A DNA stretch of 64,000 nucleotides, taken from IMG/VR virus record IMGVR_UViG_3300013005_000034, positions 1-64,000 of that record; one strand, 5' to 3'. The stretch is from a virus. This document shows, in pieces, positions 3,119-25,097 of this stretch. The notes under the pieces are model-generated. The model was not told the DNA's origin. It worked only from the letters and a program-made list of their open reading frames with translations, and made no database searches. Every line of letters begins with the position of its first letter. The first letter of the stretch is position 1. A program made the translations under genes and the position numbers.

Positions 3119-3245
3119 AACGGCACTCGGCTAAACTCTCGTTGCCGACTTAAATATGAGAGATAAACTTAATTAAAAGCACAAAATTATGAGTACAAAA
3201 AATATTTCAAACGAAGAAAAAGACAATGGAGTTTTAGCCGATGTT
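3119..3245. repeat. attC-like linker 2, contains the start of the next ORF
   Basis: tcggctaaactc...gagttttagccga t gtt; ATG at 3189 in the loop. Confidence 0.8.
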
Positions 3246-3419
3246 ATGCAACGTGATTTATATGCAGAATTACGTTCATCAGGTAGTATGACTTCTGACC
3301 AATGCTGTGAAGTTTTAGATTGGACAGAAAAATTACCAATACAAATTATAGGGTTAAATAATGTTAAGGTTTCAATAGTGCAAGGTGTTATTAGGGTAGA
3401 ACCTAATCATGTTGCATAA
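3189..3419 (+). CDS. Cassette 3 cargo, hypothetical protein
   Basis: Starts in the linker; stop TAA overlaps the terminal AAC. Confidence 0.7.
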   Translation: MSTKNISNEEKDNGVLADVMQRDLYAELRSSGSMTSDQCCEVLDWTEKLPIQIIGLNNVKVSIVQGVIRVEPNHVA

Positions 3420-3464
3420 CGTTTTGCGTATAAAAAATCGTTTTAATGTTTTTTATACGCTGTT
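3418..3464. repeat. Short attC-like linker, near-identical to 17502-17548 and 23985-24031
   Basis: gcgtataaaaaa tcgttttaatg ttttttatacgc. Confidence 0.9.
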
Positions 3465-3570
3465 ATAACCAGTAGGGATTATTTAGTAGTAACTTTAATC
3501 GGAGAACTGAACAAAAAATTAAAACAAAAAAAAGCGAATAATTTTTTAATAACTAATAAATAAAAACAAA

Positions 3571-4026
3571 ATGATGACAATTTCTAAATTAGCTTCTGAA
3601 ATCAGGGGCGAAAACAACAAAAAAGAATCTGAAAATGATTACAAAAGATTAACTGATACTTTGAAGCAATTCAATGAAGATTTCAAAGAGGTTGTTTGTG
3701 ATTTAATTAAATGTGAGGTTAAATACGAACCTTGTTTTTGGTATAAAAGTGATAACGATGGGCAATATCATATTTTCCCACACGAAACCAAATTAGATTT
3801 AAAAATGAATGGTGGAAGTGGTGGAACTTGTATTGCTAATTCTATTCTTTTCACATTTAATCACAATGGAGAAACAAGAAAGAAAAGATTATTTTATACG
3901 GAAAATAAAGGTTGGTATTATATTGCTCGTAGAGGAAATCACATGAATGATGATTATTTAATAAAAGATTACAGAAAAGACTTCATATTATACCTTGATA
4001 GTTATTTTGAAGGTGAATATAAATAA
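3571..4026 (+). CDS. Cassette 4 cargo, hypothetical protein
   Basis: 151-aa ORF filling the cassette. Confidence 0.75.
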   Translation: MMTISKLASEIRGENNKKESENDYKRLTDTLKQFNEDFKEVVCDLIKCEVKYEPCFWYKSDNDGQYHIFPHETKLDLKMNGGSGGTCIANSILFTFNHNGETRKKRLFYTENKGWYYIARRGNHMNDDYLIKDYRKDFILYLDSYFEGEYK

Positions 4027-4105
4027 ATCATTTGTGGGTGGGCTTTTTTGTTTTAATTTTTTGAACAATAAAGTTAATTCGGAGCAGTCCACCCCTATTG
4101 GTTAT

Positions 4106-4195
4106 AACGTTTTGCAGCTAACAGAAGTGGCTGCTTGTAAGAACTTCTGAATTAAAAACAAATGCTTGTAGCAGCCATTTTTGTTAGGTGCTGTT
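4106..4195. repeat. attC-like linker 4
   Basis: gcagctaacagaagtggctgct...agcagccatttttgttaggtgc. Confidence 0.8.
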
Positions 4196-4220
4196 ATAGG
4201 CTGTAAAAAATTAAAAAGCG

Positions 4221-4421
4221 ATGGAATTACAACTGATTAACTTAGGTAGAAACAACATTAACAAAACTATTGTTGTGAAAAACGAAAAAGCAATGTGGCG
4301 TGAACTTTCTAAACATTTAATGAGCAAAGGAATTGAACTTTCACCAACTGACGAACCGAATAAATACGATGTGTATGTAGGAATGTTTAGAAATGTTGGA
4401 CAGGTGATTATTAAAGAGTAA
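4221..4421 (+). CDS. Cassette 5 cargo, hypothetical protein
   Basis: 66-aa ORF between the arms. Confidence 0.7.
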   Translation: MELQLINLGRNNINKTIVVKNEKAMWRELSKHLMSKGIELSPTDEPNKYDVYVGMFRNVGQVIIKE

Positions 4422-4453
4422 CTGTGCGTAGGCTTTAATTTTTTATTGCCTAT

Positions 4454-4534
4454 AACGGTAGGAATTTGCGTCTGTTGATTTTTTACCAACAAGACAATAG
4501 ACGCTTAAAAAATCAATAGCGCAAATTTATTGTT
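4454..4534. repeat. attC-like linker 5
   Basis: aatttgcg(t)ctgttgatttt...aaaatcaatagcgcaaatt with one bulged T. Confidence 0.8.
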
Positions 4535-4557
4535 GGGCGCAGTTAAATTAAATCGGA

Positions 4558-4740
4558 ATGAGCAAACAAACAACTTGGAGCGAAAGAGCAAAATGCTATG
4601 ACGCAAAACACACAGAAAATGGAACAATATTATATTATGTGTGCCTTATTACAGGGAAGAAAACAGAATTGAAACACCCTGATAAACTTGCTTTATCGGC
4701 ATATATTGGGCATATAGGGGCTTTAGTGCAGTCCTATTAA
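4558..4740 (+). CDS. Cassette 6 cargo, hypothetical protein
   Basis: 60-aa ORF between the arms. Confidence 0.65.
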   Translation: MSKQTTWSERAKCYDAKHTENGTILYYVCLITGKKTELKHPDKLALSAYIGHIGALVQSY

Positions 4741-4748
4741 TTGCGCCC

Positions 4749-4871
4749 AACGGCTACGGCTATACGCAGTTGCGAACTTAAAAATTAAACAAAATGATAA
4801 AAAAAGAAGATTACTTAAAAGCAAAAGAAACCGTTGAAAAATACGAAGAGCAATTGCGTATAGCCGATGTT
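4749..4871. repeat. attC-like linker 6, contains the start of the next ORF
   Basis: cggctatacgcagttgc...gcaattgcgtatagccg; ATG 4794 in the loop. Confidence 0.8.
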
Positions 4872-5024
4872 ATGCGTAGTGCTAATTGCTACAATGAACT
4901 GAAAGCATTTTTGCAAGAGAAAAAGAAAAGTCCAAGATTATGCGCTTGGGATAGTGTTCACCATCAAGAGATATGGGATAAAATGCTTGAACTCGAACAG
5001 AAGTATTCAGAGCATTACGCATAA
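4794..5024 (+). CDS. Cassette 7 cargo, hypothetical protein
   Basis: Starts in the linker, ends at TAA(C). Confidence 0.7.
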   Translation: MIKKEDYLKAKETVEKYEEQLRIADVMRSANCYNELKAFLQEKKKSPRLCAWDSVHHQEIWDKMLELEQKYSEHYA

Positions 5025-5107
5025 CGGTTGAGGCTATGAGCAGTTGCCTTATAAATACTGCTCAATTAACCACAAATGTTGATAGGCAATTGCTTATAGC
5101 CTTTGTT
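5023..5107. repeat. attC-like linker 7
   Basis: aggctatgagcagttgcct...aggcaattgcttatagcct. Confidence 0.8.
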
Positions 5108-5124
5108 AGCACCAGTTTTTTATT

Positions 5125-5379
5125 ATGAATTACGAAGAAATAAAACAAAAAGTAACGGACAGAGAAATCAACTGTGAACAAGCATTTGAAAGCCTTGCAG
5201 AAATCGGTTATTGTCCAAATTTATTAAACGATGATAACGGTCATTGGGCTGTTAAATTTGATGGCTTTCAAAATGTGCCAATGGGTGATGAACCTGATGA
5301 TATTTCAACTACTTGTTTTATTGAAGCAAAGGATTGGAAAGATAGTATTTACGAAGCACTTGTTTGGGCGTTGTCCTAA
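5125..5379 (+). CDS. Cassette 8 cargo, hypothetical protein
   Basis: 84-aa ORF between the arms. Confidence 0.7.
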   Translation: MNYEEIKQKVTDREINCEQAFESLAEIGYCPNLLNDDNGHWAVKFDGFQNVPMGDEPDDISTTCFIEAKDWKDSIYEALVWALS

Positions 5380-5389
5380 AATTGGTGCT

Positions 5390-5484
5390 AACGTTTTGTG
5401 GCTTTGTGTCTGTTATTTTGGCTTGCAGACACTCGCCTTTAAAGATAAATTTTATAGCCAAAATAATAGCACAAAACCACTGTT
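5390..5484. repeat. attC-like linker 8
   Basis: gtggctttgtg(t)ctgttattttggct...agccaaaataatagcacaaaaccac. Confidence 0.8.
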
Positions 5485-5512
5485 AGTGGCTGGTGCGGTA
5501 AATTAAGAACAA

Positions 5513-5725
5513 ATGTTTAATAACAATCAAATTCAAAAAGTAGAAATAGACCAAGAAAAGAAAAAACTTTATGTCTATTATGTTCAGGACAACTCACATT
5601 TAATGAGTAACCCACCTCCGCCACCAAGTTATTATAGAGAAGTTTTTTCTTTTGATAATTTGGAATTTATTGAAAAGGAATATGCAAAAGTAGAACGAGG
5701 ATTTGAAAAGGTAACGTGGTCGTAG
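5513..5725 (+). CDS. Cassette 9 cargo, hypothetical protein
   Basis: 70-aa ORF between the arms. Confidence 0.7.
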   Translation: MFNNNQIQKVEIDQEKKKLYVYYVQDNSHLMSNPPPPPSYYREVFSFDNLEFIEKEYAKVERGFEKVTWS

Positions 5726-5736
5726 CACTTGCCACT

Positions 5737-5853
5737 AACGGTTCTCGGCTTGGCGAAGTTGCCGAACACAAAACTTCATTAGAATTACAAATTTTTAAAT
5801 TTAGATAAAATGTCAAACGAAGAACTAAACGGCAATTTTGCCAAACCGATGTT
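5737..5853. repeat. attC-like linker 9, contains the start of the methyltransferase
   Basis: tcggcttggcgaagttgccg...cggcaattttgccaaaccga; ATG 5810. Confidence 0.8.
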
Positions 5854-6466
5854 ACCTGCCGTTGTGGGTTCTCAAAGGAAATACCAAATTATTTACGCTG
5901 ACCCTGCTTGGTCACACTATAACGATATGACCGTTACTGTGCAACAGAATAAAGCAAAGGATTTTATTAGTAGAAACCCATATCCAGTAATGTCAAGTTC
6001 AGATATAAAAGCGTTGCCAATAAAAGATATAGCCGATGAAAATTGCATTTTGTTTATATGGACTACGGACTATCATTTATCAAGATGCTGTGAAGTGATA
6101 AAGGCTTGGGGATTTGAATATAAAACAGTTGGTTTTGTGTGGCAAAAGTTGAATAAACAAAATAAGCCTGTATGCTTTATGGGAAACTACACTTTGAAAA
6201 GTGGCGTAGAAATATGTTTATTAGCCACAAAGGGTAAGGGGGCTGCCAAATTAGTTAAGAAACGAAATGTAAGGTCGTTAGTTCAAAGCCAACGTGAAGA
6301 ACATAGTAAGAAACCCGATGAAGTAAGAAATAGAATAGTAGAACTTTGTGGCGATATACCAAGAGTAGAATTATTTGCAAGGGAAAATCACGATGGGTGG
6401 GATGCTTGGGGTAATGAAGTGGAAGAAAGTATCAACTTGGAAACGTCTGCTAACAATGGCAGGTAA
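5810..6466 (+). CDS. MT-A70 family adenine methyltransferase (cassette 10 cargo)
   Basis: IIYADPAW, LFIWT, AWGFEYKT, HSKKP, ELFAR, GWDAWGNE motifs. Confidence 0.9.
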   Translation: MSNEELNGNFAKPMLPAVVGSQRKYQIIYADPAWSHYNDMTVTVQQNKAKDFISRNPYPVMSSSDIKALPIKDIADENCILFIWTTDYHLSRCCEVIKAWGFEYKTVGFVWQKLNKQNKPVCFMGNYTLKSGVEICLLATKGKGAAKLVKKRNVRSLVQSQREEHSKKPDEVRNRIVELCGDIPRVELFARENHDGWDAWGNEVEESINLETSANNGR

Positions 6467-6514
6467 CGGTTTGCGTATAAGAGCCGTTTTTTCAATGGCT
6501 TCTTATACGCTGTT
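6465..6514. repeat. attC-like linker 10
   Basis: gcgtataagagcc...ggcttcttatacgc. Confidence 0.8.
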
Positions 6515-6570
6515 ATGCTCTCGTTTTGCGTGGGTGGGCTTGATAAAATATTAACTTAAAAAATATACAA

Positions 6571-6807
6571 ATGGAAATTGAAACAGTATCAGATTTAGCA
6601 AATGTAATAGCCGATTGGATTGGTGTTTATGGAGCTTGTAAAGACGAAGGTAAAAGTGATGGGTGCGAATTTTCTGAAAAGAAAGTTGCTTGTTGCAGAG
6701 TAGGATTTACAATGCACTTAGAGGAACGAATTAGAGAGGCTGTTGAAAATGATAAGAAAATTGAGGAAATGAATTTGCGTGAGCTGGCAAAGCAAAATGG
6801 AGCATAA
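6571..6807 (+). CDS. Cassette 11 cargo, hypothetical protein
   Basis: Ends at TAA(C) of the right arm. Confidence 0.7.
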   Translation: MEIETVSDLANVIADWIGVYGACKDEGKSDGCEFSEKKVACCRVGFTMHLEERIREAVENDKKIEEMNLRELAKQNGA

Positions 6808-6808
6808 C

Positions 6809-6894
6809 TCCAATCTTTGCGCTATATTAATGGAAATAAAAAGTTATTAACAATAGTATAATTAGATTATTTTATTACCTATATTTACCACAAT
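6809..6894 (+). promoter_or_regulatory. Conserved array-terminal element, copy 1 (attI-like site plus probable promoter)
   Basis: tttgcgctatattaatggaaataaaaagttattaacaatagtataatt shared with 18412-18496 and 25098-25183. Confidence 0.7.
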
Positions 6895-6909
6895 TAAAAA
6901 CCGAACAAA

Positions 6910-7344
6910 ATGCAAAATAACAAAACAGAATTTAAGATTAGGAATTTTTTTATAGATGAAAAAAATTATCTTCAAATTAAGAGTAATGATAAATTAATAT
7001 TCTTAACTCTATACTTAAATGGAGAAAAAAGAGGTAGGAATATAGGAACTGTTACTAAATCTACCCGAACAATATTTATGAAACGCAAAGTAGATAAACA
7101 TTTATTTAGGAAATTGAACGCTTGGGGGTTCAACGATTATGTTTTAAGAAATCAAAGTACATTCGATTTTGTGAGTTTAAGCGATGATAAAGGAAACCAT
7201 TGGAGTAAGATACCTGTAAGTATGATTTTAGAGGGAGCTACATACTTAAATTTTAAAAGTCAGGGATTTGAATTACAAAGATTTGTTTCTTTGGAAGATT
7301 TAGAGAAATATAAAGTAAAAAAAGAAGATAATACGAGATTTTAA
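6910..7344 (+). CDS. Hypothetical phage protein
   Basis: 144-aa ORF downstream of the terminal element. Confidence 0.75.
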   Translation: MQNNKTEFKIRNFFIDEKNYLQIKSNDKLIFLTLYLNGEKRGRNIGTVTKSTRTIFMKRKVDKHLFRKLNAWGFNDYVLRNQSTFDFVSLSDDKGNHWSKIPVSMILEGATYLNFKSQGFELQRFVSLEDLEKYKVKKEDNTRF

Positions 7345-7345
7345 G

Positions 7346-7837
7346 ATGAATACTGGAAACTATATGATAGATGGGGATGATGGTAGCCATTGCTTTTCTC
7401 CCTATCACAATTCAAGTAAATGTGAACTTTGCAAAGAACTTGAAGAAGAATTGGAAAAAGAACAAGAATTAGACGAAGATTTGGAAAATGATAATAACGA
7501 TGTTTTTGAATCTGAACACAAATTGCCTTTTTTAGTTGCTGAATATCCATTGAATTTAGATACTAAACACAAATGGATATGCTTTAAAGTTGGAACTTGC
7601 GAAGGACTTTGGAGATGCACCTATACGAGTTATGAGATTTTAGCACTTAAAAACAAAGAAAAAGGTAACGGACACCTCAACGATGTTTTTCAATGGTTTG
7701 AAATGAGTAGCAAAAGAGATAATAAAACTCTAAAGGTAAAAGAAGTTTGGAACGAGCGATTTCAAAACCACTTGCAAAAAAGAGGATTTAAAAGATGTTC
7801 GGCTTTTGATTTTGAAAAAACTTTTAAAAATAATTAA
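7346..7837 (+). CDS. Hypothetical protein, possible GNAT-like C-terminal domain
   Basis: KEKGNGHL...NERFQNHLQKRGF resembles GNAT motifs A/B; weak. Confidence 0.45.
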   Translation: MNTGNYMIDGDDGSHCFSPYHNSSKCELCKELEEELEKEQELDEDLENDNNDVFESEHKLPFLVAEYPLNLDTKHKWICFKVGTCEGLWRCTYTSYEILALKNKEKGNGHLNDVFQWFEMSSKRDNKTLKVKEVWNERFQNHLQKRGFKRCSAFDFEKTFKNN

Positions 7838-8140
7838 ATGGGAATGTTTGATGATTTGGTAATTGACAAAGTTCACTTACCTGACGAGTTGAAAAATTAT
7901 GAAAATGGTTGGCAGACAAAATCGCTTGATTGCTATATGAATTTTATTAAAATTGATGAAAATGGTAGTTTGTTTGAAACTATATGTCATTATCACAATG
8001 AAAAAGAAAGTCCAAGAAGAAAATATCATATCGGAGAAGTAAGATTTTACCAAAATATAAATGATGTTTGGTATGTCTTTGTCGCCTTTTTTGATGATGG
8101 AAAGATGTTTAGATTAATACAAGTAGAGCCAAAAAAATAA
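7838..8140 (+). CDS. Hypothetical phage protein (MGMFD...QTKSLD type)
   Basis: N-terminal motif familiar from small phage proteins. Confidence 0.7.
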   Translation: MGMFDDLVIDKVHLPDELKNYENGWQTKSLDCYMNFIKIDENGSLFETICHYHNEKESPRRKYHIGEVRFYQNINDVWYVFVAFFDDGKMFRLIQVEPKK

Positions 8141-8144
8141 TTTT

Positions 8145-8966
8145 ATGGAAAAAATATTTAAAATTCAACATATAAACGATTTACTTATCGTTGAATTTAG
8201 AAAATTAGTAGCCGAAGATTGCGAATTAGTATCTGATTCGGGATGTTTAATATCTATGCAAGAAAAATACATTAGCAGGAAAATAGTTTATTCGGTTAAA
8301 AAAGAATTAATCCAAGAAATAAAAGATTTTATCTCTTTAATTAAAGAAAAGAAAAATCATTATTTAGAATTTATGGCATTTGATGGTAAATTATTTATAA
8401 AAATAGAGGACAAATACCTTCGTGATGATTTTATCAAATACATAGATTTAATTGCTAATGAAATAGTATTGGATAAATCTAAATATTTAGATTTTAGAGG
8501 ATGTAAAACTGAACAAGATAAAGATAAGAAAATAGAAAAATTAAAAAAACAGGTTGATTTCTATGAATCTGAAAAATTGAGTTTTCTTGATGCTCATTTG
8601 GATTATCTAAATATGGAAATTGAAAAGTTAATTAAATATATCAATAAAGAAACTGAAAATGAACTTGTCATTTATATTACGAGTGGAGAATGTATAGAAA
8701 ACATAAGCGATGAAAAACTACTGGATTTATCAAGAGAATCAAAAAAACTATCTATTGAACTTGCAGTATTATCTGAACGAAGAAATGTAATAAATGAGGA
8801 ACTATCTAAGTTAAAAAGGCAAATTGTTATGGATAGGCTAATTTCAAATGATTTTACCATAACTGATGAATACGGAAATAAATATACTTTGCCTGAATCA
8901 ACAACTGAAAGAGTAAAAGAAAAATTGAACACGAGCTTTATTCCTAAAAAACATATTAAGATATAA
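8145..8966 (+). CDS. Hypothetical coiled-coil protein
   Basis: 273-aa charged ORF. Confidence 0.7.
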   Translation: MEKIFKIQHINDLLIVEFRKLVAEDCELVSDSGCLISMQEKYISRKIVYSVKKELIQEIKDFISLIKEKKNHYLEFMAFDGKLFIKIEDKYLRDDFIKYIDLIANEIVLDKSKYLDFRGCKTEQDKDKKIEKLKKQVDFYESEKLSFLDAHLDYLNMEIEKLIKYINKETENELVIYITSGECIENISDEKLLDLSRESKKLSIELAVLSERRNVINEELSKLKRQIVMDRLISNDFTITDEYGNKYTLPESTTERVKEKLNTSFIPKKHIKI

Positions 8967-9046
8967 TTTTAAAACTGATTATCAATACTATATAATAAAA
9001 AATTAAAATTTAACATTTACAATATTGACAATTAAAGTAAATTGAC

Positions 9047-9054
9047 TATATTTG
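9047..9054 (+). promoter_or_regulatory. Bacteroidota sigma-70 -7 element
   Basis: TATATTTG (TAnnTTTG) in an intergenic gap upstream of 9095. Confidence 0.55.
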
Positions 9055-9094
9055 TAAAAGTTTTAAATACCATTAAAAAATTCTACGGTCAAAA

Positions 9095-9592
9095 ATGAAT
9101 TTATTTATTTTATCAAACAGCAAAGAGGAATCGGCAATATTCCATACAGACAAACATATTGTTAAAATGCCGACTGAACTAAGTCAAATGTTATCGTTTG
9201 CTTATCATCATTCTAATTTATGGAAACATAATAATCCTGAATTTATTATGCAGTTTTCCAAAACACACGATTTGCACCCTTGCTCAAAATGGATGCGTGA
9301 AAGTTTATCTAACTGGATTTATAGTTGTGAGTTTGGATTAGAGCTATATAAAGAGTATCAGTTTAGATTCAATAAACCCGACAAACATCAAAGAGCAAAA
9401 AAAATATTTGAATTTTCACTAAACAACCCTCCTAATATTAAAGATATTGGCTTAACCCCTTTCGTTTGCGCTATGCCCGATGAAGTTAAGATTAGCGATT
9501 GTGCGGTATCTAATTACAGAAATTACTATAATAAATCGAAAACCCATTTGTTTAAGTGGACAGCAAGAAATAAACCTTATTGGATATATTAA
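9095..9592 (+). CDS. Pyrimidine-dimer DNA glycosylase/DenV-like protein
   Basis: MNLFIL...HTDKHIVKMPTELSQMLS...HPCSKW...YRNYY pattern. Confidence 0.75.
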   Translation: MNLFILSNSKEESAIFHTDKHIVKMPTELSQMLSFAYHHSNLWKHNNPEFIMQFSKTHDLHPCSKWMRESLSNWIYSCEFGLELYKEYQFRFNKPDKHQRAKKIFEFSLNNPPNIKDIGLTPFVCAMPDEVKISDCAVSNYRNYYNKSKTHLFKWTARNKPYWIY

Positions 9593-9602
9593 AAATAACA
9601 CT

Positions 9603-10669: not shown

Positions 10670-10850
10670 AAACATGAAACAAGAAAAAGAACAACAACAA
10701 GAACAACAATCAGCATTAGATTATTTTTGGAAACAAATAAGTAATAAATACTTAGATAGCTATCAAAAAGAATTATTTACTAAATTTTATGAAAAGGCTA
10801 AGTTAATTGAAATAGAACAGCAAAAAAAAACACAATTAAAAATTAAATAA

Positions 10851-12081: not shown

Positions 12082-12100
12082 CTAAAATCAAATAAAAAAA

Positions 12101-14962: not shown

Positions 14963-14985
14963 TAACAACTAAAAACAAATAACAA

Positions 14986-16622: not shown

Positions 16623-17104
16623 AAAACAAATGGAACAATTAGAACAACAATTAAATGAAAAAATGCTACAAATAGCAAAAGATTACATTCAGAGAAGAAA
16701 TGATAAACCTTTTGAGCAATACGAGGAGGCAAATTATCTTAATGAAAAATACCTTTCAGTAAAAAATGAATTTGAAAAGGAAGGCGATTTTTATATAATC
16801 TTAAATGAGTGCATAAAAGTAGTTTTAGGAAAAACAAAAAAAAATACAATATGAAAATTAAAAAAAGAAAAATTAAAAACCCTTGTACTATTTGTGGTAA
16901 AGAAGTTCGTTGGGGAATTGATGGATGCCCTATTGTTGAAAAAGGCAAAGATTTTGAAACTTTATTGGGTGGAGTAAAAGGTATGAAGCATTATGAGTGC
17001 AAATAAAATTTTTAACATAACGGTTTGCAAATAGGCAATCGTTTTAATGTTGCTTATTTGCTGTTAGCACCAATACGGATTATTAACAACAAAAATTAAA
17101 TAAG

Positions 17105-17491
17105 ATGAAAGAATTTAAAAAAGAAAATTTAGAATTTTACTTACCTGATACATTTAAAGGATTAAGTAAAGATTATTTACTTGAATGTATCTTCAATGAT
17201 GAGATACAGAAAAAATGGAATCCTGATGTTGGAGATATTATTATTGGTTGCACTGGCAATATTTTTGTAATTGGGGTTAAAGAAACATTACATGAAAGTA
17301 TTGGTGGGGCGAGATATTATTTTGGTGGTGGCTCTTGTAATAGAGATGGTGGTAATATATTAGACAGCACATTTTGTTATACCGCAAATGAATCAGGTAA
17401 GTTTTATCACACATTAAAAGGTGAAATTCAAAATATTTATCATTCGTGTATTAGAGATTTTAGATACGTTCCTTATCCACACGAAAGGTAG
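17105..17491 (+). CDS. Cassette cargo, hypothetical protein
   Basis: Between arms gttagcaccaatac/gtattggtgctaac. Confidence 0.75.
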   Translation: MKEFKKENLEFYLPDTFKGLSKDYLLECIFNDEIQKKWNPDVGDIIIGCTGNIFVIGVKETLHESIGGARYYFGGGSCNRDGGNILDSTFCYTANESGKFYHTLKGEIQNIYHSCIRDFRYVPYPHER

Positions 17492-17575
17492 TATTGGTGC
17501 TAACGGTTTGCGTATAAAAAATCGTTTTAATGTTTTTTATACGCTGTTATATTTAGTTTTTTAAAACTTTTACAA

Positions 17576-17761
17576 ATGAAAAATATAGAAGAAGCAATAC
17601 AACTTAACTCAATAGATGAAATTGAGGAAGAAATAAGACAACGAAAGGAATTAAGAGCAACGATGGTTGGTCAATTATATCCAAGAATATTAACTGACGA
17701 GATTTATAAACTCAATGAAAAGTTGTGGAATATAAGACACTCAAAAGTTTTAAAAACTTGA
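17576..17761 (+). CDS. Cassette cargo, hypothetical protein
   Basis: 61-aa ORF between the arms. Confidence 0.65.
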   Translation: MKNIEEAIQLNSIDEIEEEIRQRKELRATMVGQLYPRILTDEIYKLNEKLWNIRHSKVLKT

Positions 17762-17809
17762 ATATAACCGCTAACAGATATATGTAGTTTTAACACAATA
17801 TTTAATAAT

Positions 17810-18058
17810 ATGGAAGAAAGTAAAAATTTAGAACAAAATTTGAATAAGAGTAATGAAAAATTACATATATCTAATGTTAGTTGTAGTTTATCATACCAAC
17901 CAAGTTATGTTGAAACTGTTTGTGAAGGTGTGTTTTTCAGAATTAAAGCACCATTGATATTCAGTGCTGATGTTTTAGCTTATGCTGGTATATTTTCTTT
18001 GTTAGACAAAAAACACACCTTTGAATATTATTGCTTAAAATATCTATCTGAAAGATAA
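17810..18058 (+). CDS. Cassette cargo with linker-encoded N-terminus
   Basis: Starts in the linker loop (MEESKN...LHISN-V-SCS). Confidence 0.65.
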   Translation: MEESKNLEQNLNKSNEKLHISNVSCSLSYQPSYVETVCEGVFFRIKAPLIFSADVLAYAGIFSLLDKKHTFEYYCLKYLSER

Positions 18059-18221
18059 ATTACAACTAACGGTTTGCGTGTATAAGAAGTGGCGGATTAG
18101 AACTCCAAAACTTTCAGCAAACGCAGAACTTAATTAGAATTACAAAACATTAAATAACCAAGAAACCCGCCATTTTTTATACACGCTGTTAGTGGCTGGG
18201 CTTTTCACAAATTGAAACAAA

Positions 18222-18398
18222 ATGAACAAAATATTGATATGTGTATTATTGCAAATCGTTCTTTTTATTCCATTTTATTTGATATGGAGAAATGATTGTA
18301 AAACGATAGGTAAAGACAACTTGGCTGTTAGCTTACAAGAACGATTTTTGTATTGGCTAATATTTTGTCCAATTTGGTTGGTTGGTGTGTTGGATTAG
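18222..18398 (+). CDS. Cassette cargo, 58-aa two-TM protein (not in ORF track)
   Basis: MNKILICVLLQIVLFIPFYLIW...FLYWLIFCPIWLVGVLD. Confidence 0.65.
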   Translation: MNKILICVLLQIVLFIPFYLIWRNDCKTIGKDNLAVSLQERFLYWLIFCPIWLVGVLD

Positions 18399-18411
18399 CC
18401 TTGCCACTAAC

Positions 18412-18496
18412 TTACTTCTTTACGCTACAATTAAGGAAATAAAAAGTTATTAACAATTGCATAATTAAATAAAATAATTACTAATTTTGACCACAA
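18412..18496 (+). promoter_or_regulatory. Conserved array-terminal element, copy 2
   Basis: cgctacaattaaggaaataaaaagttattaacaat...ctaattttgaccac, contains TAATTTTG. Confidence 0.75.
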
Positions 18497-18751: not shown

Positions 18752-18802
18752 AAAATCACAAACAAACAATAAACCAAAACACAAATCAAAATCACAAACA
18801 AC

Positions 18803-19996
18803 ATGAAAAGACAAACCACCCTCGCAGAATTGGTAACGGAGTTGAAAGACCAAAATCTGCAAAAAAAAGATTTCGTAGTTCCTGCAAATCTTTTATCAAT
18901 GGAAAATGGAAAATTAGTAGTGAACAATTATAGTTCAAACGATTCTCTACAAAAGATACTTACAGAAGTAGGTATTCAATCAGAGGATTCCAATAAACTA
19001 ATTTTAAATTGCTTACCTGTAATTCATCAAAACTTATCAGATAAATGCGATATTCCTCGTAAATACTATAATCGTATTCAAGGACTAAAAGACCAAACAC
19101 TAATTGATACAAATGTTACTCATTGGTTAAAATCCATGAAAGGAAATGTTTTTTTAAGAACATTTATTGACAAAGATGAACAAAATGGATTCGCAAGAGC
19201 ATTACTTTCAGATAGATATAACGTAATTGATAACTTTGATGTTTTATTAGCTACACTTGAAGCAGTTAAGAATAGTGGATTAAACTTAAAGATTGAAGAT
19301 AACGGTTGTGATTTATCAGAATCTAAAATGTATGTAAGATTTGTTGCTCCTGAAATTGAAATTAACGCACCCGATTTATTAAAAAACTACAAAAATCCAA
19401 AAGGTAATAGTAATGTAGGTGATGGTATTATTACTGGATTTGTTGTTACTAATAGCGAAATAGGGCAAGGTTCATTTAATATCAGTCCAAGAGCTGTTAT
19501 ATTAAAGTGCCAAAACGGAATGGTATTTAAAAATGATGCCTTTGGTAAAATTCACTTAGGTTCAAAAATGGAACAATATTCTCAAATTGATTGGAGCGAA
19601 GAAACTAAAAGAAAAAATTACGAGTTAATTCAGGCGCAAGTAAAAGATGCGGTTAAGAAATTCACAAGCGAAGATTTTTTAGCACAAAAAATAAGTGAAT
19701 TAAACGAATATGCTGAAATTGAATTAAAACATCCTATTGAAACAGTTAAGAATGTTAGCAAATTATTAAACATTACCGAAGAAAAAGAAAAAAGTATTCT
19801 TGACTTCTTTATGAGAGGTGGCGATTTTAGTTACATGGGAGTAAGTCAGGCATTAACATTCTTTGCTCACGAAACAAAAGATGCAGACGAAGCTCACGAT
19901 TTAGAAACAACAGCTATTGAAATTTTACCAAAAATTAAAGAGTTGGATAAACCCTCTGTTTCAAAATCAGTTAAAACTCAAATGAGTTTAAATTAA
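18803..19996 (+). CDS. DUF932-family protein
   Basis: RALLSDRYNVIDN, NSEIGQGS, CQNGM motifs. Confidence 0.75.
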   Translation: MKRQTTLAELVTELKDQNLQKKDFVVPANLLSMENGKLVVNNYSSNDSLQKILTEVGIQSEDSNKLILNCLPVIHQNLSDKCDIPRKYYNRIQGLKDQTLIDTNVTHWLKSMKGNVFLRTFIDKDEQNGFARALLSDRYNVIDNFDVLLATLEAVKNSGLNLKIEDNGCDLSESKMYVRFVAPEIEINAPDLLKNYKNPKGNSNVGDGIITGFVVTNSEIGQGSFNISPRAVILKCQNGMVFKNDAFGKIHLGSKMEQYSQIDWSEETKRKNYELIQAQVKDAVKKFTSEDFLAQKISELNEYAEIELKHPIETVKNVSKLLNITEEKEKSILDFFMRGGDFSYMGVSQALTFFAHETKDADEAHDLETTAIEILPKIKELDKPSVSKSVKTQMSLN

Positions 19997-20010
19997 TAAT
20001 TTAGGAAATA

Positions 20011-20040
20011 AAAAAAGGGGGAAATCACGCCCCCTTTCTA
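20011..20040 (+). terminator. Probable intrinsic terminator
   Basis: aaaggggg-aaatcacg-cccccttt hairpin after the DUF932 gene. Confidence 0.55.
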
Positions 20041-20150
20041 AACCAAAGACACTATGTCAAAATAACACTAACGCCACAATAGGCGATACTAAATTATAAA
20101 TTAAATAAACAATTAATTAATTTTTATATTATACAACTAAATTGTAAAAA

Positions 20151-21038
20151 ATGAACATCAGTCAATCACTACTAAAATCCCTATTAGATTATCGTAATGG
20201 AAAAGAATGTGGATTAATATTTAAGGCAAAGTATATAGATGGAAGATACGATTTATTTCCTCCCTCCGATGCACAAAATGTAGGTGCATGGTTTGAATAT
20301 ATGGCTACTGGTAGCATACCTAAAAATGGTATAGTGCCAAAAGCAGAATATATGAAAAGAGGTAAAGATGAAAATGGCAACCCTGAACTTACTGCCGATT
20401 ATCGCTTAATGAGAGAACATATAGATAATTTCAAAAAGAATATGGAGAGTTACTCATTAGATATTATTACAGCAGGAGAAGATATTAAAGTTTTATATCC
20501 TAATTCTTTAGAAGAATATGGAGAAGAAGTTTATTTAACAGGAACTCTTGATGTAAGAGCAAGAGCAAATAAAGATATTTTTGCTAAATACCAAGATACT
20601 ATCGTTAAGGTAGCTTCAAAAGATGAAGAAGTTATTATTGATATTAAAACGACTGGATTGTTAGACGATAAATGGTCGGAAATGGGCTGGGAGATTAATA
20701 ATCTATCAAATAAAATTAAACTTGTTACTCAACCTGTTCACTATAAATTTATTGAGTATTTAAAAACAGACAAAGATGTACCTTTTATATTTATGTTGTT
20801 CAATTCTAAAAACTCAAAAGATGCAAGAATTATTGATTTTAAAGTTGATAGTTCATCTTTTGAAGAACATAAAGCGTTTATTGAATCGGGAGTTGAAAAT
20901 ATGTTGCATTTGAGAAAATATGGTTTCAAAGCGTTGCCATCACTTGAAAAATGTTCAAAATGTCCTTTGAATACTGATTGTAAGTTTAAAGCAGAAATTT
21001 CGCCAATAACTATATTTTATTTTGCTCATCAGGTTTAA
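20151..21038 (+). CDS. PD-(D/E)xK (RecB/Cas4-like) exonuclease
   Basis: GTLDV...IIDIKTT and C-terminal CSKCPLNTDC. Confidence 0.75.
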   Translation: MNISQSLLKSLLDYRNGKECGLIFKAKYIDGRYDLFPPSDAQNVGAWFEYMATGSIPKNGIVPKAEYMKRGKDENGNPELTADYRLMREHIDNFKKNMESYSLDIITAGEDIKVLYPNSLEEYGEEVYLTGTLDVRARANKDIFAKYQDTIVKVASKDEEVIIDIKTTGLLDDKWSEMGWEINNLSNKIKLVTQPVHYKFIEYLKTDKDVPFIFMLFNSKNSKDARIIDFKVDSSSFEEHKAFIESGVENMLHLRKYGFKALPSLEKCSKCPLNTDCKFKAEISPITIFYFAHQV

Positions 21039-21173
21039 TATATTATGTTTGTATCGCACAATTCAACTAAAATGAAATTACAAAAAAAATATTTAAAAAA
21101 AACCTTTAAGCAAGTAGGAATCCTCTATTTTTAGTTGATTGTGCAACCTACTTGCGAGAAGGGATTTTTAATC

Positions 21174-21986
21174 ATGGAAACATCATTAATTATTGAAATT
21201 TCATCTTTGCCTTGTATAGATGATAAAAGAGGGCGTTATAGAACAATAGAATTATATCCAAAAATTAGTGGAATTTATAAAATAACATCTCCTAATGGCT
21301 CTATTTATATTGGTTTATCAAATGATATTTATTATAGGATTTATAGTTGTTATAAGAAATTAAGATGTAAGGCTCAACATAAAATATATAATTCTTTAAT
21401 TAAATATGGTATTGATAATCATAAATTTGAAATTATTCATATTGTTGAAAATTTTGAAGAATATGAGAAAATTAAAATTTTAAGAAAATTAGAAATAGCT
21501 TATATACAAAAATATAATTCATTTTATGGAAATAATAATTTTGGAATGAATTTAACAAAAGGAGGCGAAATAATTGAATTAACAGATGAAACTAAAAAAA
21601 TAATGAATGATAAGAAAAAAGGTAGGATTGTTTCCCAAGAAACAAGAGAAAAGTTAAGGAAAATAAATTTAGGTAAAAAATTATCACAAGAACATAAAGA
21701 TAAAATTAGTATATCTCATAAAGGAAAAATTGTTTCAGAATTAACAAAAAAAAGATTAAGTGAATCTCACAAAGGAGAAAAACATAGTTTTGAACGAATA
21801 CAAAAAAAAATTGGAAGTAAACAAAATCCTGAAACAATAAAAAAAAGAATTGATAAGATTAGCGGTATTAATCATTGGACAAAAAAATATGGCGGTCATT
21901 CAGAGCAAACAAAGATAAAAATAAGTATATCACTCAAAGAAAGGCATAAAAAAATGTCTAATAAGAATGAAAAAAACACTAATTAA
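21174..21986 (+). CDS. GIY-YIG homing endonuclease with NUMOD3 repeats
   Basis: SGIYKIT...IYIGLS; repeated SQETREKL/SEQTKIKIS. Confidence 0.85.
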   Translation: METSLIIEISSLPCIDDKRGRYRTIELYPKISGIYKITSPNGSIYIGLSNDIYYRIYSCYKKLRCKAQHKIYNSLIKYGIDNHKFEIIHIVENFEEYEKIKILRKLEIAYIQKYNSFYGNNNFGMNLTKGGEIIELTDETKKIMNDKKKGRIVSQETREKLRKINLGKKLSQEHKDKISISHKGKIVSELTKKRLSESHKGEKHSFERIQKKIGSKQNPETIKKRIDKISGINHWTKKYGGHSEQTKIKISISLKERHKKMSNKNEKNTN

Positions 21987-22278
21987 AAGAAAAAAATTAA
22001 GTAAGAGTTTAAGAATAAAAATATTTGAGAGGGATAATTATGAATGTCAGTTGTGCTATGACAATTTAATAGATAAAAAAGATTTAAGAGTAATAGACCA
22101 TAAAATACCTCTTTCAAAAGGAGGCAGTAACTCAATATCAAATCTTTGGCTACTTTGTAATGATTGTGATAAAAGAAAGAAAAATAAATTGTTTCCTGAA
22201 TTGATGAAACAATACATAAAGGGTAAGTTAAATTATCTTTCTAATTTAAGATTTAATGGAAATCGTTATAATAAGTGA
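21967..22278 (+). CDS. HNH endonuclease
   Basis: RDNYECQLC...DHKIPLSKGG...NLWLLCNDC. Confidence 0.85.
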   Translation: MKKTLIKRKKLSKSLRIKIFERDNYECQLCYDNLIDKKDLRVIDHKIPLSKGGSNSISNLWLLCNDCDKRKKNKLFPELMKQYIKGKLNYLSNLRFNGNRYNK

Positions 22279-22504
22279 ATATGAAAATTTACCTTACATA
22301 GTTAAAAGCGAGAATGGAGAAATATATCAGTTAAGTTATTATGATACTAAAAAAAGAATTAAAAAATACAAAATATTAATACCTAAAGAGCATAACGGAA
22401 GTATGTATTATAGAATTAATAGTGAGAGATATTCAGATTATAGATTAAAAACAATTGAGATTAAAGTTTATAAAAGAATTAACCTAAATAAAATAAAAAA
22501 ATGA
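22256..22504 (+). CDS. Hypothetical protein
   Basis: ORF track. Confidence 0.6.
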   Translation: MEIVIISEYENLPYIVKSENGEIYQLSYYDTKKRIKKYKILIPKEHNGSMYYRINSERYSDYRLKTIEIKVYKRINLNKIKK

Positions 22505-22791
22505 AACCATTAAAAATCAAAGGAGTTAAATTAAAAAAAGGAGAAGAATTATTACATTATTATCCTTTTTGTTATTGCATAGCAAAATCTACTGAAAGTA
22601 GTGCTTTATTTGTAATACCTCCACAAAATAAAGGAACTGTTGCAGATAATGGTTATTTAAGCGTTTGTTTTGATTATAAATTATGTAAAGATGTAAAAGT
22701 AGGAGATTGGTGCGAAGTAGGTTATATAAGTGATTATAGTAAAGGAGAAAATAAAGTGCTTAAAATATTAAAATCTAAAAAAAATAAATAA
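22501..22791 (+). CDS. Hypothetical protein
   Basis: ORF track. Confidence 0.6.
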   Translation: MKPLKIKGVKLKKGEELLHYYPFCYCIAKSTESSALFVIPPQNKGTVADNGYLSVCFDYKLCKDVKVGDWCEVGYISDYSKGENKVLKILKSKKNK

Positions 22792-23023
22792 TATGAATAA
22801 AAAAATTAATATTATAGGAATCATTATTTTTTTATTTTCTCTTTCATATTTAACAATATACACTATGATTATTGATTTATATTATGGTATATCTATGGGA
22901 TTAATTTCAATTTTATTTATAATAATTATATTAAAAAGTAAAAAAAAGAAAAATGAATAAGTATGGAAAATAAAAATACTTTCTATGGGATTGAAATATT
23001 TAAAAACTAAAAAAAATAAAAAT

Positions 23024-23061
23024 AAATAAAAACAAACAAAATGAAAACAACAAAAACAAAA
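23024..23061 (+). repeat. 38-bp direct repeat, left of array 3 (second copy 25205-25242)
   Basis: aaataaaaacaaacaaaatgaaaacaacaaaaacaaaa at both sites. Confidence 0.7.
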
Positions 23062-23085
23062 ACAAAAATGAAAACAACAAAAAAA

Positions 23086-23313
23086 ATGGAACACAAAAAT
23101 TTGAATACAAAAGAAACCGCCAATAGCGATTTAGGTGCTGTTAGCGGTAGTTTGAGGGAACAATCTCTTGAATGGTTTTTCGCAAAAAGTGAAATTGAGA
23201 AACACGATTTAAAAGACAAACACTTTCCAAACACACCAATACAGCATAGTAGGCAATGGGGATTTCATTTCACTTTTGGTCAAATTGAGGAAATGTATGT
23301 TAAAGAACGGTAA
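23086..23313 (+). CDS. Cassette cargo with linker-derived N-terminus
   Basis: MEHKNLNTKETANSDLGA-V-SGS crosses the GTT at 23140. Confidence 0.7.
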   Translation: MEHKNLNTKETANSDLGAVSGSLREQSLEWFFAKSEIEKHDLKDKHFPNTPIQHSRQWGFHFTFGQIEEMYVKER

Positions 23314-23391
23314 CAAATTACCGCTAACGGTTTGCAAATATATTTCAGTTGCGGTAAAAATAATAATAACTTAATTAAATAAATAAAAAAA

Positions 23392-23946
23392 ATGGAAAAC
23401 ACAAAAAAAGCATACAAAGAAATATTTAAAGTCTTAAATAAATATAAAGATGTTATTGTTATTGATATTAAAACATTAGAGGAAAAATCAAAACTCCATT
23501 TATTTGGATTAGAATTAAAAGAAGTTTACGGACTTGAAATCAATGAGAAACGTATCAATAATATGCAATATCAGGAATTAAAAGACAACGTATATCTAAC
23601 TTTTATTGATAGCGAAACGAGAACTATAAGCTGGGAAGATAATGGCAAAAAACCAAAAGGAGAAAGTTTGATTAAGTTTAGTTATCCAACAGGAGCTTAC
23701 ATTTTTGGTGGAGATTATCCTACTGATTTTTTCCAAAAGTTTTTTTTAGAATTGAAATCATTTAATCCCGATTATTGCGATAGCGCCAATAAAAGCCTGT
23801 ATTTTAAATTGGAAAATGCAAAAGAAATATTTAATAGTTATGATTCAATAATAAAAAAATATTACGAATTAAACAAAGAAGATATTAAACAAAGACAGAT
23901 TTTAAAAATGAAAGCCGATTTAGAAAAATTAGAAGCAAGTAAGTAA
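23392..23946 (+). CDS. Hypothetical protein in a damaged cassette
   Basis: 184-aa ORF; right arm present, left arm missing. Confidence 0.75.
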   Translation: MENTKKAYKEIFKVLNKYKDVIVIDIKTLEEKSKLHLFGLELKEVYGLEINEKRINNMQYQELKDNVYLTFIDSETRTISWEDNGKKPKGESLIKFSYPTGAYIFGGDYPTDFFQKFFLELKSFNPDYCDSANKSLYFKLENAKEIFNSYDSIIKKYYELNKEDIKQRQILKMKADLEKLEASK

Positions 23947-24135
23947 CGCACCCACAGGCGGGGAGGGTTTTAAAACTTGTACCTAACGGTTTGTGTATAA
24001 AAAATCGTTTTAATGTTTTTTATACGCTGTTATAACCAGTAGGGATTATTAAGTACAAATGCTCATTCGGAGAAGTAAACAAAAAATTAAAACAAAAAAA
24101 GTGTAGGGAATAATTAATCAATTAAATAATAAAAA

Positions 24136-25008
24136 ATGACAACAGAAAAACAATTTGGCGACTTATCACATTTTGCAAAAAGAGATGTAGAACTTTTTAG
24201 AAGTTCAGACCAAAACGAAACCGCTATCTATTTTACGGAATTAGAAGATAAGCAAAGAGAAACTGCGAAAGCGTTTTTTGAAATACTGCGATTTGGCTTG
24301 GATGGTGGCGACCATCAAATATATGTTCGTTTCCCAAATACTGACCATTTTGTAGAAATGATTGGTGGTGGATTTGGTTCAGGTAGAGGGTATATGAAAG
24401 TAGCTGATGGTAAAAATGTTTGGGAGGATAAAAACAAAGCACCATTTAGAATCTATTCACATAATAAGGATTTACTTTTCATAATTGGTAGAACTGATTG
24501 GACTGGAGAATTTAATTTTATGACAAAAGTTGCAAGTTATGATAAAGGAAATCCATTCAATCATCCTTATCCTAATGAAACATTTGTGAATTTCAAAGAG
24601 ATTGAAAAAGCACTTTCAATGAAATATTTAAAGATACCTGAAAGTATAAGAAAGATTGAATATTGCTACAAAACTAAAGATACAACACCAAAATATTTTG
24701 TAGTGGATTATCCAGCTTACAATTTCAAATATGACAACCATAGATTTTTTGTGATTGAAAATGAACATATAAAAGAATTTGGGATTAAAAACTTTGTAAG
24801 ATACAAAGATGGTGGAACAACTATCATTACTGTAACCGATGAAAACGGAATTGAACACAAATTCTTTTCACCAACATCATTGCCTGAAAAAACGCTTTGT
24901 GAAAAGTGGGATAAAACTGAATTGATAGAAGCAAGTGAAACTGAAAAGCAAAAACTTACAGAACTTTTGAATTTGAATGTAGAACCAAATATAGTTGACA
25001 AAGAATAA
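24136..25008 (+). CDS. Cassette cargo, hypothetical protein
   Basis: 290-aa ORF inside a shell homologous to cassette 4. Confidence 0.8.
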   Translation: MTTEKQFGDLSHFAKRDVELFRSSDQNETAIYFTELEDKQRETAKAFFEILRFGLDGGDHQIYVRFPNTDHFVEMIGGGFGSGRGYMKVADGKNVWEDKNKAPFRIYSHNKDLLFIIGRTDWTGEFNFMTKVASYDKGNPFNHPYPNETFVNFKEIEKALSMKYLKIPESIRKIEYCYKTKDTTPKYFVVDYPAYNFKYDNHRFFVIENEHIKEFGIKNFVRYKDGGTTIITVTDENGIEHKFFSPTSLPEKTLCEKWDKTELIEASETEKQKLTELLNLNVEPNIVDKE

Positions 25009-25097
25009 TCATTTAGTCATTTGTGTGTGGATTTTTTTGTTTTAATTTTTTGAACGATAAAGTTAATTCGGAGCAGTCCACACCTATTGGTTATAAC

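Follow-up and report, generated by a model that had tools for sequence, protein, structure and literature searches.

Why would inverted repeats whose sequence changes from one gene cassette to the next keep the same imperfection at the same place? We wanted to answer this question for a viral DNA, IMG/VR record IMGVR_UViG_3300013005_000034, of which positions 1 to 64,000 were analysed (hereafter the window; the whole record is 73.6 kb long, with an estimated completeness of 62%). The window is AT-rich (G+C of about 28%), and DNA near-identical to it is contained in lake-water metagenomes. It carries three arrays of small cassettes, located at 2488-6808, 17022-18411 and 23140-25097, which are built on one common repeated plan: ...TAAC↓G, a short spacer, a hairpin that we call Y (41-122 nt), usually a single T, a left arm beginning with GTTA, an open reading frame (ORF), and a right arm ending in TAAC. 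The arrow marks the junction between units, and in each cassette the right arm is the reverse complement of the left arm. This architecture also occurs in Muminvirus and Hattifnattvirus, two genera of Flavobacterium phages, and in Polaribacter phage P12002L. The original prediction, made from the letters of the window, was that a G:T mispair is conserved at position 11 of the arms and that it implies recognition of a folded single strand, by analogy with the extrahelical bases of integron attC sites. As judged from sequence comparison and predicted folding, the mispair is probably the mark by which an integron-like system picks the right DNA strand.

Most arm pairs of the window cassettes are mispaired at position 11

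The arms of the window were read directly and by an inverted-repeat search anchored on GTT...AAC. This naive search was noisy, giving 318 pairs against 199-262 in 20 shuffles. Since an anchor-only search was thus dominated by background, cassettes were redefined by their context, namely the AAC↓G junction, the local hairpin, and the GTT. The resulting finder returned 17 modules on the + strand and one on the - strand. Upon inspection, 14 of the 17 were genuine and the - strand module was spurious, so genuine modules are found on the + strand exclusively. Plain counts of GTTRRRY in the window showed no enrichment (137 against 149.5 expected).

Nine arm pairs differ at position 11 alone, counted from the GTT: 11 of 12 positions match, and a G of the left arm faces a T of the right arm. 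Named by the first base of the left arm and the last base of the right arm, these are 3243/3420, 3462/4108, 4532/4751, 4869/5025, 5105/5392, 5851/6467, 17876/18070, 23140/23328 and 24029/25097. In 4193/4456, 5482/5739 and 18188/18411, positions 10-11 read TG against AA, which corresponds to T.T plus G:T, and in 17546/17768 the G:T at position 11 is accompanied by two further mismatches. Together, these are the 13 of 17 cassettes for which the G:T had been claimed. The pairs 2488/2602, 2662/3121 and 6512/6808 contain one additional base in the left arm with G still facing T, confirming the claim of a G shifted by a 1-nt insertion in these three cassettes. Finally, as had been stated, 17063/17504 alone pairs perfectly, with a match at 12 of 12 positions.

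The mispair is maintained while the rest of the stem varies

It had been proposed to align the arms of many homologous cassettes. For this, the arm after one junction was compared with the arm before the next one, and pairing was judged without positions 10-20. Of 333 pairs of consecutive junctions, 184 agree at no fewer than 8 of positions 1-9, with 130 distinct pairs among them. When the 96 gapless distinct pairs were considered, position 11 was G:T in 85, another mismatch in 10, and Watson-Crick in only one. Positions 12, 13, 14 and 15 are paired in 93, 88, 88 and 73 of these 96 pairs, respectively, and position 10 is paired in 64, the remainder being mostly T.T. Genome contigs added 43 new pairs, none of which is Watson-Crick at position 11. 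Another 72 new pairs came from a set ascertained through the recombinase described below, with G:T in 56, a bulge with G in 14, a bulge without G in one, T.T in one, and Watson-Crick in none. Since Watson-Crick pairing was seen in 1/96, and then in 0/43 and 0/72 pairs of differently ascertained sets, the mispair is positional and not random. Altogether, viral contigs, genome contigs, and the window gave 245 distinct pairs (Watson-Crick 1, G:T 169, left-arm bulge with G 57, other 18), which is a strong enrichment at position 11, as anticipated. The polarity is also fixed, with the T in the right arm in 124 of 125 gapless pairs and the G in the left arm in 114 of 125.

The arm sequences were expected to vary between cassettes, and they do: positions 5-9 show 71 different pentamers in 130 pairs and 84 in 173 pairs. 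The two arms of a pair covary, positions 1-9 and 12-15 being complementary despite their differing sequences. Because the mispair persists across 84 pentamers among 173 pairs, a common ancestry of the arms does not explain it. Compensatory changes have thus altered the remaining stem, whereas the mispair is maintained.

One Y loop has a 20-nt core that was found exactly in at least 119 IMG/VR contigs. This core is also exact in 77 stretches of genome contigs, mostly from Flavobacteriaceae and other Bacteroidota, with some contigs of metagenome-assembled genomes (MAGs) otherwise labelled. Seven loci with this core (L146, L153, L163, L165, L166, L181 and L191) are assigned to archaeal bins (Nanoarchaeota, Woesearchaeota, Methanolobus) and to an Aliivibrio chromosome. 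L153 and L165 contain long arrays obeying the same G:T rule, and such loci are probably phage contigs mis-binned into MAGs. In one hairpin type, an 11-nt loop is conserved (window 3432-3450, 17516-17534 and 23999-24017) while the stem covaries, different stems surrounding it at 17022-17062 of the window, in P12002L, and in many other loci. A loop that is kept while its stem covaries suggests that something reads the loop itself.

Units are gained and lost at the TAAC junction

Muminvirus genomes that are 99.9-100% identical in the flanks were found to differ by whole blocks whose first base follows a TAAC and whose last bases are TAAC, such as a block of about 500 bp in mumin9-2 that is missing from mumin6-3. 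The bases common to these joints are TAACGTT or TAACG alone. The window was also compared with metagenome contigs. Runs X1 and X2, a possible source of the window, were excluded, joints with short sides (20-34 letters) were disregarded, and stretches uncovered in run X9 were not counted as evidence. In run X9, a 7.7-kb lake-metagenome contig differs by one letter across 1500-4751, continues with 61 other letters, and resumes at 6870; since it jumps from 4751 to 6870, the five units of 4752-6808 are missing there. In a contig of run X3, 2439 is joined to 4749 via a different segment of 258 letters. Metagenome contigs also diverge at 3424, 5736 and 6809, all of which are junctions. In both phage genomes and metagenome contigs, the boundaries of gain and loss fall within TAAC↓G(T/G)T, with a resolution of 5-7 shared bases. 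The base following AAC↓G (G, T or A) segregates with neither neighbour in the locus listing and did not narrow the crossover. One joint, 4108-to-6816 (X3 and X4), was rejected: it carries the letters that follow the identical arm of array 3 and is most likely that locus misplaced here.

Since the unit boundary is TAAC↓G, each hairpin travels with the cassette downstream, and the arms alone do not bound the mobile unit.

Two other arrangements were seen at such sites. In P12002L (locus L009, 29240-32290, - strand), the array's first right arm has its best complement three units further downstream, in the left arm of that third unit. It looks as though two units had entered a formerly contiguous arm'-hairpin-arm site, and in one P12002L unit the two arms mismatch each other. 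In L134, L248 and L257, a minimal 'empty' site with no ORF lies just upstream of the recombinase gene and abuts the attI-like motif described below. It is formed by a 9-bp GTTA.../...TAAC stem closed by the conserved 11-nt loop.

The joined site is predicted to fold unequally on the two strands

When a unit is closed as a circle, its right arm, Y, and left arm become contiguous, and it is in this excised circular form only that the arms form a single stem. The joined site (arm', Y, arm) was folded in silico with DNA parameters. On the ORF-sense strand, the predicted structure begins with a stem of about 15-16 bp, the G:T being one of its pairs, followed by a 4-5-nt bulge just 3' of TAAC and by the Y stem-loop. 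On the opposite strand of the window sites, a 1x1 C.A mismatch interrupts the stem and the fold is predicted to be less stable. The two strands are therefore unequal, since the pair that is a G:T wobble on the ORF-sense strand is a C.A mismatch on the other. Throughout the 130 units, the ORF-sense strand is the more stable in 128, with a mean difference of 4.2 kcal/mol, and in 127 the longest ORF is on the same strand as the module. A single T forms the 3' spacer in 87 of the 130, while the 5' spacer has 4-5 nt and begins with G. At the other paired positions of the stem, 23 wobbles were counted against 5 mismatches of the A.C type.

A tyrosine recombinase gene lies at the end of related arrays

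A tyrosine recombinase is encoded in 11 of 38 array-bearing records, with 12 genes in total. All 12 begin 16-65 nt after a last ...AAC↓ and are co-oriented with the cassettes. The protein, of about 265-280 aa, has a SAM-like N-terminal domain and a Phage_integrase catalytic domain. Its best curated matches, all below cut-off, are 'XerA / integron integrase', XerD, XerC, and 'integron integrase' (147-170 bits for TIGR02249, whose cut-off is 265, and 92-108 for PRK15417, whose cut-off is 435). The nearest solved structures are XerA-type proteins (4a8e, 5hxy), then IntI4, and then XerD. The alignment to IntI4 (2a3v) breaks in two, 23 residues standing opposite 65 of IntI4, meaning that the IntI-specific insert or domain is missing. 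The catalytic Arg, Lys, His-x-x-Arg, His and Tyr positions are kept in 7 of 7 aligned copies. By its sequence, the recombinase belongs to the Xer/IntI group. Relatives were found on 405 viral contigs and among 4556 database proteins at E <= 1e-20, where they are named 'XerD' at most.

A reverse search was made from 69 recombinase loci with at least 300 nt upstream. Same-strand modules were found upstream of the gene in 64 of them (172 modules upstream, 8 downstream, and 35 on the opposite strand). As a strict attI-like pattern was too narrow (9/69), a mismatch-tolerant count with controls was used instead: an AAC↓TACTATATGTA-like motif (at most 3 mismatches) was seen in 51 of the 65 distinct regions upstream of the gene, while random control segments gave 8 of 325. 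The attI-like site has the form TAAC↓TAYTATATGTA, and together with the last AAC↓ junction it precedes the recombinase start codon by a median distance of 52 nt. Integrase gene, attI-like site, and cassettes form the layout of an integron platform in related phages, not in the window, where the arrays end in a different conserved sequence of about 85 nt instead. With up to 3 mismatches, the attI-like motif has 27 matches in the window for 19.8 expected; the best one, at 35624, lies inside a minus-strand coding block and was rejected.

Composition of the three arrays

The units of the window are given below, with their mispairs by arm position.

2488..2602, +, first and atypical unit of array 1; arms 2488-2505 / 2586-2602 with an extra left-arm base and G facing T; the last codons of ORF 2065-2586, for its C-terminus, lie within the unit; the AAC of the junction ends at 2602
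2603..3121, +, Y 2603-2661; cassette 2662-3121 with arms of about 35 nt (2662-2696 / 3087-3121); 1-nt bulge plus G:T; ORF 2711-3085, matching phrog_33653 (unknown function)
3122..3420, +, Y 3122-3242, with the start codon of ORF 3189-3419 in its loop; cassette 3243-3420; G:T at 11
3421..4108, +, Y 3421-3461 with the widely conserved loop; cassette 3462-4108; G:T at 11; ORF 3571-4026
4109..4456, +, Y 4109-4192; cassette 4193-4456; T.T at 10 and G:T at 11; ORF 4221-4421
4457..4751, +, Y 4457-4531; cassette 4532-4751; G:T at 11; ORF 4558-4740; the array of one lake-metagenome variant stops exactly at 4751
4752..5025, +, Y 4752-4868, whose loop holds the start of ORF 4794-5024; cassette 4869-5025; G:T at 11
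5026..5392, +, Y 5026-5104; cassette 5105-5392; G:T at 11; ORF 5125-5379
5393..5739, +, Y 5393-5481, resembling Muminvirus hairpins; cassette 5482-5739; T.T at 10 and G:T at 11; ORF 5513-5725
5740..6467, +, Y 5740-5850, whose loop holds the start of ORF 5810-6466 (MT-A70 DNA methyltransferase); cassette 5851-6467; G:T at 11
6468..6808, +, last unit of array 1; Y 6468-6511; cassette 6512-6808; 1-nt bulge plus G:T; ORF 6571-6807
6809..6895, +, post-array sequence, copy 1
17022..17504, +, first unit of array 2; Y 17022-17062; cassette 17063-17504, the sole pair perfect at position 11; ORF 17105-17491
17505..17768, +, Y 17505-17545 with the conserved loop; cassette 17546-17768; G:T at 11, T.G at 9, T.C at 12; ORF 17576-17761; directly followed by an orphan right-arm remnant, 17769-17775
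17776..18070, +, Y-like hairpin 17776-17875, with the start of ORF 17810-18058 in its loop; cassette 17876-18070; G:T at 11
18071..18411, +, last unit of array 2; Y 18071-18187; cassette 18188-18411; T.T at 10 and G:T at 11; ORF 18222-18398
18412..18496, +, post-array sequence, copy 2
23140..23328, +, first cassette of array 3; G:T at 11; ORF 23041-23313 begins 5' of the left arm
23329..23987, +, irregular unit with a Y-left-arm-like start and a ...CCTAAC end; no matching arms found; ORF 23392-23946
23988..25097, +, last unit of array 3; Y 23988-24028 with the conserved loop; cassette 24029-25097; G:T at 11; ORF 24136-25008
25098..25185, +, post-array sequence, copy 3

The ORFs of the window cassettes are small and mostly without a family match. 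Two were identified, the MT-A70 DNA methyltransferase and the PHROG match of unknown function. ORFs start within hairpin loops at 3189, 4794, 5810 and 17810, and the reading continues across the hairpin's 3' half and the left arm, so arm and hairpin sequence doubles as coding sequence there. The cassettes 3462-4108 and 24029-25097 contain different ORFs (151 aa and 290 aa) between identical arms. About 70-80 nt are conserved at both of their ends (3462-3545 and 4030-4108; 24029-24110 and 25010-25097), including a perfect inverted repeat of 20-21 nt, and a motif resembling their left end follows the arm in many other loci. These common ends may be a cassette frame or a regulatory element.

The conserved sequence of about 85 nt lies directly 3' of each of the three arrays. 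A 23-mer of it is exact at 6832, 18435 and 25121, for 0.01 expected by chance. Its sequence is promoter-like, and it is a possible landing site. Scans for terminators and promoters gave nothing above shuffles, the hairpins being not terminator-like beyond background, and an Rfam scan returned no family match.

Three genes outside the arrays were also noted. Two are located between arrays 2 and 3: ORF 21135-21986, which gave a weak match to NUMOD3, looks by eye like a GIY-YIG-type homing endonuclease, and ORF 21967-22278, the next one, looks by eye like an HNH nuclease. At 36037-37212 (- strand), a 391-aa IS605-type TnpB gene (domains OrfB_IS605, Cas12f1-like TNB and HTH_OrfB_IS605) is a gene for an RNA-guided nuclease in the phage genome, apparently unrelated to the cassette arrays.

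Discussion

These results point to the arms as the outer stem of an attC-like, structure-specific recombination site in an integron-like cassette system of phages infecting Flavobacteriia, with the mispair read by the enzyme. We give this reading a probability of roughly 60%. Recognition of a folded single strand with strand selection, as the original prediction had it, is favoured by the fixed place and polarity of the mispair, by the covarying arms, and by the unequal strands (128/130). The mobility of the units at the junction adjacent to the arm and the cognate tyrosine recombinase at array ends point in the same direction. The analogy with the extrahelical bases of attC stands insofar as the two strands are made unequal, but not as to location, since the mispair, 11 bp away from the crossover in the outward direction, belongs to the outer stem and not to the L-box stem.

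In the mechanism that we propose, the mobile unit would be a G, a spacer of 4-5 nt, the hairpin Y, a T, an arm X beginning with GTTA, the ORF, and an arm X' ending in TAAC. Excision of this unit as a circle would make X', Y, and X contiguous, and the ORF-sense strand could then fold into one long hairpin made of the X'/X stem of about 15 bp, the bulge of 4-5 nt located 3' of TAAC, and the Y stem-loop. The Xer-like recombinase would bind this folded strand and cleave it at TAA(C)↓ on the 5' arm, the exchange partner being another junction or the attI-like site TAAC↓TAYTATATGTA. The arm stem and Y would each be occupied by one monomer, and the bulge of 4-5 nt would serve as the central region. 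A tyrosine recombinase monomer cleaves the strand whose binding arm lies 5' of the central region. The crossover is on the right-arm side of the junction; the strand to be cut would accordingly be the ORF-sense one, at TAA(C)↓, with the polarity of the attC bottom strand. The never-paired T, 11 nt before the cleavage point or about one helical turn from it, has a G opposite in most cases and a T in some, at times with an additional bulged base. It may act as a recognition and register mark, possibly flipped out. Owing to the inequality between wobble and C.A, one strand would recombine and cassettes would insert in one orientation. We infer, from the observations above, a single-stranded substrate, the ORF-sense strand as the one that is cleaved, and the mispair as what the enzyme reads. 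In the window phage, the enzyme would be supplied by the missing part of the genome, by a co-infecting phage, or by the host.

Several observations weigh against this reading. The crossover is mapped no finer than the shared TAACG(T/G)T, a perfectly paired cassette (17063/17504) is still present, and some units have unmatched arms (23329-23987, and one in P12002L). In the window record, neither a PF00589 match nor a relative of the phage recombinase was found, which, in a record estimated to be 62% complete, does not show that the phage lacks one. The recombinase is also missing from six near-complete array-bearing viral records, from three Muminvirus/Hattifnattvirus genomes, and from P12002L, and the enzyme would thus have to act in trans in these array-bearing genomes. 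Moreover, the recombinase is without the IntI domain that reads extrahelical bases, so the analogy with attC recognition is not a structural homology. Finally, the ORF-sense strand is also the transcript, and tolerance of wobbles and greater stability of this strand fit an RNA helix equally well.

Because the favoured strand is also the transcript, the main rival is a function at the RNA level, in which the arms would bracket the ORF in the messenger RNA as a helix of about 15 bp with a G.U, serving as a signal for processing, stability, or translation (for example through a double-strand-specific ribonuclease), mobility being a separate matter. The position of the ORF on the wobble strand in 127/130 units, the standing of G.U as a standard RNA pair, the excess of wobbles over A.C-type mismatches elsewhere in the stem (23 to 5), and the start codons in some hairpin loops would all be accounted for. 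However, a neutral tolerance of wobbles leaves unexplained why one position is obligatorily non-Watson-Crick, be it by G:T, T.T, double mismatches, or bulges. The stem also abuts the DNA crossover exactly and is continuous with Y in circular DNA alone, the linkage to a recombinase and an attI-like site is a feature of DNA, and neither an Rfam match nor terminator-like hairpins above background were found. We therefore hold this explanation to be unlikely. The arms could also be terminal inverted repeats of the transposon-end kind, bound as double-stranded DNA, with G versus A distinguishing the left from the right end. Inverted repeats with conserved GTTA/TAAC tips do flank the cassettes, and left and right arms differ consistently at one place. 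Yet the inner arms vary (84 pentamers in 173 pairs) while covarying within each cassette, which base pairing explains and a sequence-reading protein cannot. In addition, the left boundary of the mobile unit precedes the hairpin, so the arms do not delimit the unit, and no transposase gene was found within the cassette units. This makes duplex repeats decidedly improbable.

A third mode of movement would be transposition by an HUH (Y1) enzyme as in IS200/IS605 elements, single-stranded circles being inserted 3' of TAAC with Y as the subterminal recognition element. These elements are strand-specific, and their junction, close to which a hairpin lies, comes after a short conserved tetranucleotide. 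Likewise, the phage units sit 3' of TAAC with a hairpin a few nucleotides from the left junction, and each recreates a TAAC, which would yield tandem arrays; the window also holds the IS605-type TnpB gene at 36037-37212. But this gene is distant from the arrays and on the opposite strand, and the record has no PF01797 (Y1 transposase) match. Each unit has one local hairpin, with arms that pair over a long range and no second subterminal hairpin at the right end, and the gene consistently linked to array ends encodes a tyrosine recombinase of the Xer/IntI group. We consider this explanation a shade less probable still than duplex repeats. At the far end stands a mispair without function, inherited from one ancestral arm or left as a by-product of mutation or repair bias. 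Many cassettes are indeed related, with a common conserved hairpin and partly similar arms. Nevertheless, position 11 is Watson-Crick in 1/245 pairs while its neighbours show compensatory turnover, three differently ascertained sets agree, and a bias is not expected at a single position with a single polarity. A functionless mispair is largely refuted by these counts and is the least probable of the explanations considered.

Returning to the attC-like site, it has several features in common with integrons and CALINs (clusters of attC sites lacking integrases). The arrays consist of mostly single-ORF cassettes in uniform orientation, and the sites are imperfect palindromes of variable sequence with conserved ...AAC / GTT... 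tips and a crossover at the tip. The hairpin of the circular form has an outer stem, an unpaired spacer, and an inner stem-loop, its strands being structurally unequal, and in related phages a recombinase gene lies beside a distinct attI-like site at one end of the array. When compared with the attC tip pattern RYYYAAC...GTTRRRY, every junction shows ...TAAC and GTTA... tips, a spacer, and an inner stem-loop, but the stem is extended to about 15 bp and the spacer is asymmetric. Compared with a CALIN, the window has three clusters of sites and no integrase, the sites being defined operationally and not by the attC model.

The differences are also clear. The phage recombinase has no IntI-specific domain and scores below the integron-integrase cut-offs, and the outer stem of the phage site has about 15 bp compared with 7 in attC. 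The spacer is asymmetric, 4-5 nt lying opposite 1 nt. The fixed imperfection is located in the outer stem and not in the L box, the Y stem having not been systematically searched for conserved bulged bases. The phage hairpin precedes the ORF, which lies on the equivalent of the attC bottom strand in 127/130 units, whereas in integrons the ORF is on the top strand with attC downstream. One type of Y loop is conserved, unlike attC loops. The system thus works like an integron but is set apart from integrons by three features: the IntI domain, the L-box imperfection, and the strand of the ORF.

The enzyme itself resembles Xer proteins, being a small two-domain tyrosine recombinase whose closest solved relatives are archaeal XerA-type (4a8e, 5hxy). 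During integration of the CTX phage of Vibrio, an Xer-type enzyme uses a hairpin formed by one strand. The phage arrays differ from Xer systems in having many cassettes with variable sites instead of one dif-like site, and an enzyme encoded by the phage at the end of the array.

Parts of this system have been encountered before. Qi et al. (2023) report, in the passages on P12002L, a CALIN with two methyltransferases, and that one of the two predicted attC sites was integrated into attI1 by IntI1 as the bottom strand, while the top strand gave no recombinants (PMC9892861). As the array of P12002L is of the kind described here, this result speaks for the attC-like reading. Relevant passages of other papers state that three unpaired features of attC confer strand selectivity (PMC5027507) and that classical integrons are rare in Bacteroidota (PMC9024848). 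In Muminvirus, a variable methyltransferase content was linked to plating efficiency on different hosts (PMC7077304), and a term search of that article found no discussion of repeats or hairpins in the text retrieved. In the full-text literature outside subscription journals, neither the extended arms nor the mispair at position 11 was found described, and the same holds for the attI-like motif and for an Xer-like integrase located at the array end.

Taken further, these phages may have a distinct and widespread gene-capture system of Bacteroidota phages, with its own Xer-like integrase, its own attI, long attC-like hairpins, and a never-paired T that, in place of the extrahelical bases of attC, selects the strand and the register of cleavage, which would shuffle methyltransferases and other small accessory genes between phages. 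We advance this wider proposal tentatively, at somewhat short of an even chance. If true, it would be a second, independently organised case of recombination that reads the shape of DNA over its sequence, and a single mispair at a fixed distance from the cut would be a simple structural determinant. Since the enzyme is closer to Xer than to IntI, it bears on the evolution of integron integrases from Xer-like ancestors, an origin set out in the passages concerned of PMC4792948. The system would account for the swapping of methyltransferase genes among phages of Flavobacteria and, given the large recombinase family, would be common in lakes and seas yet unannotated. It may also provide a tool for inserting cassettes in Bacteroidota.

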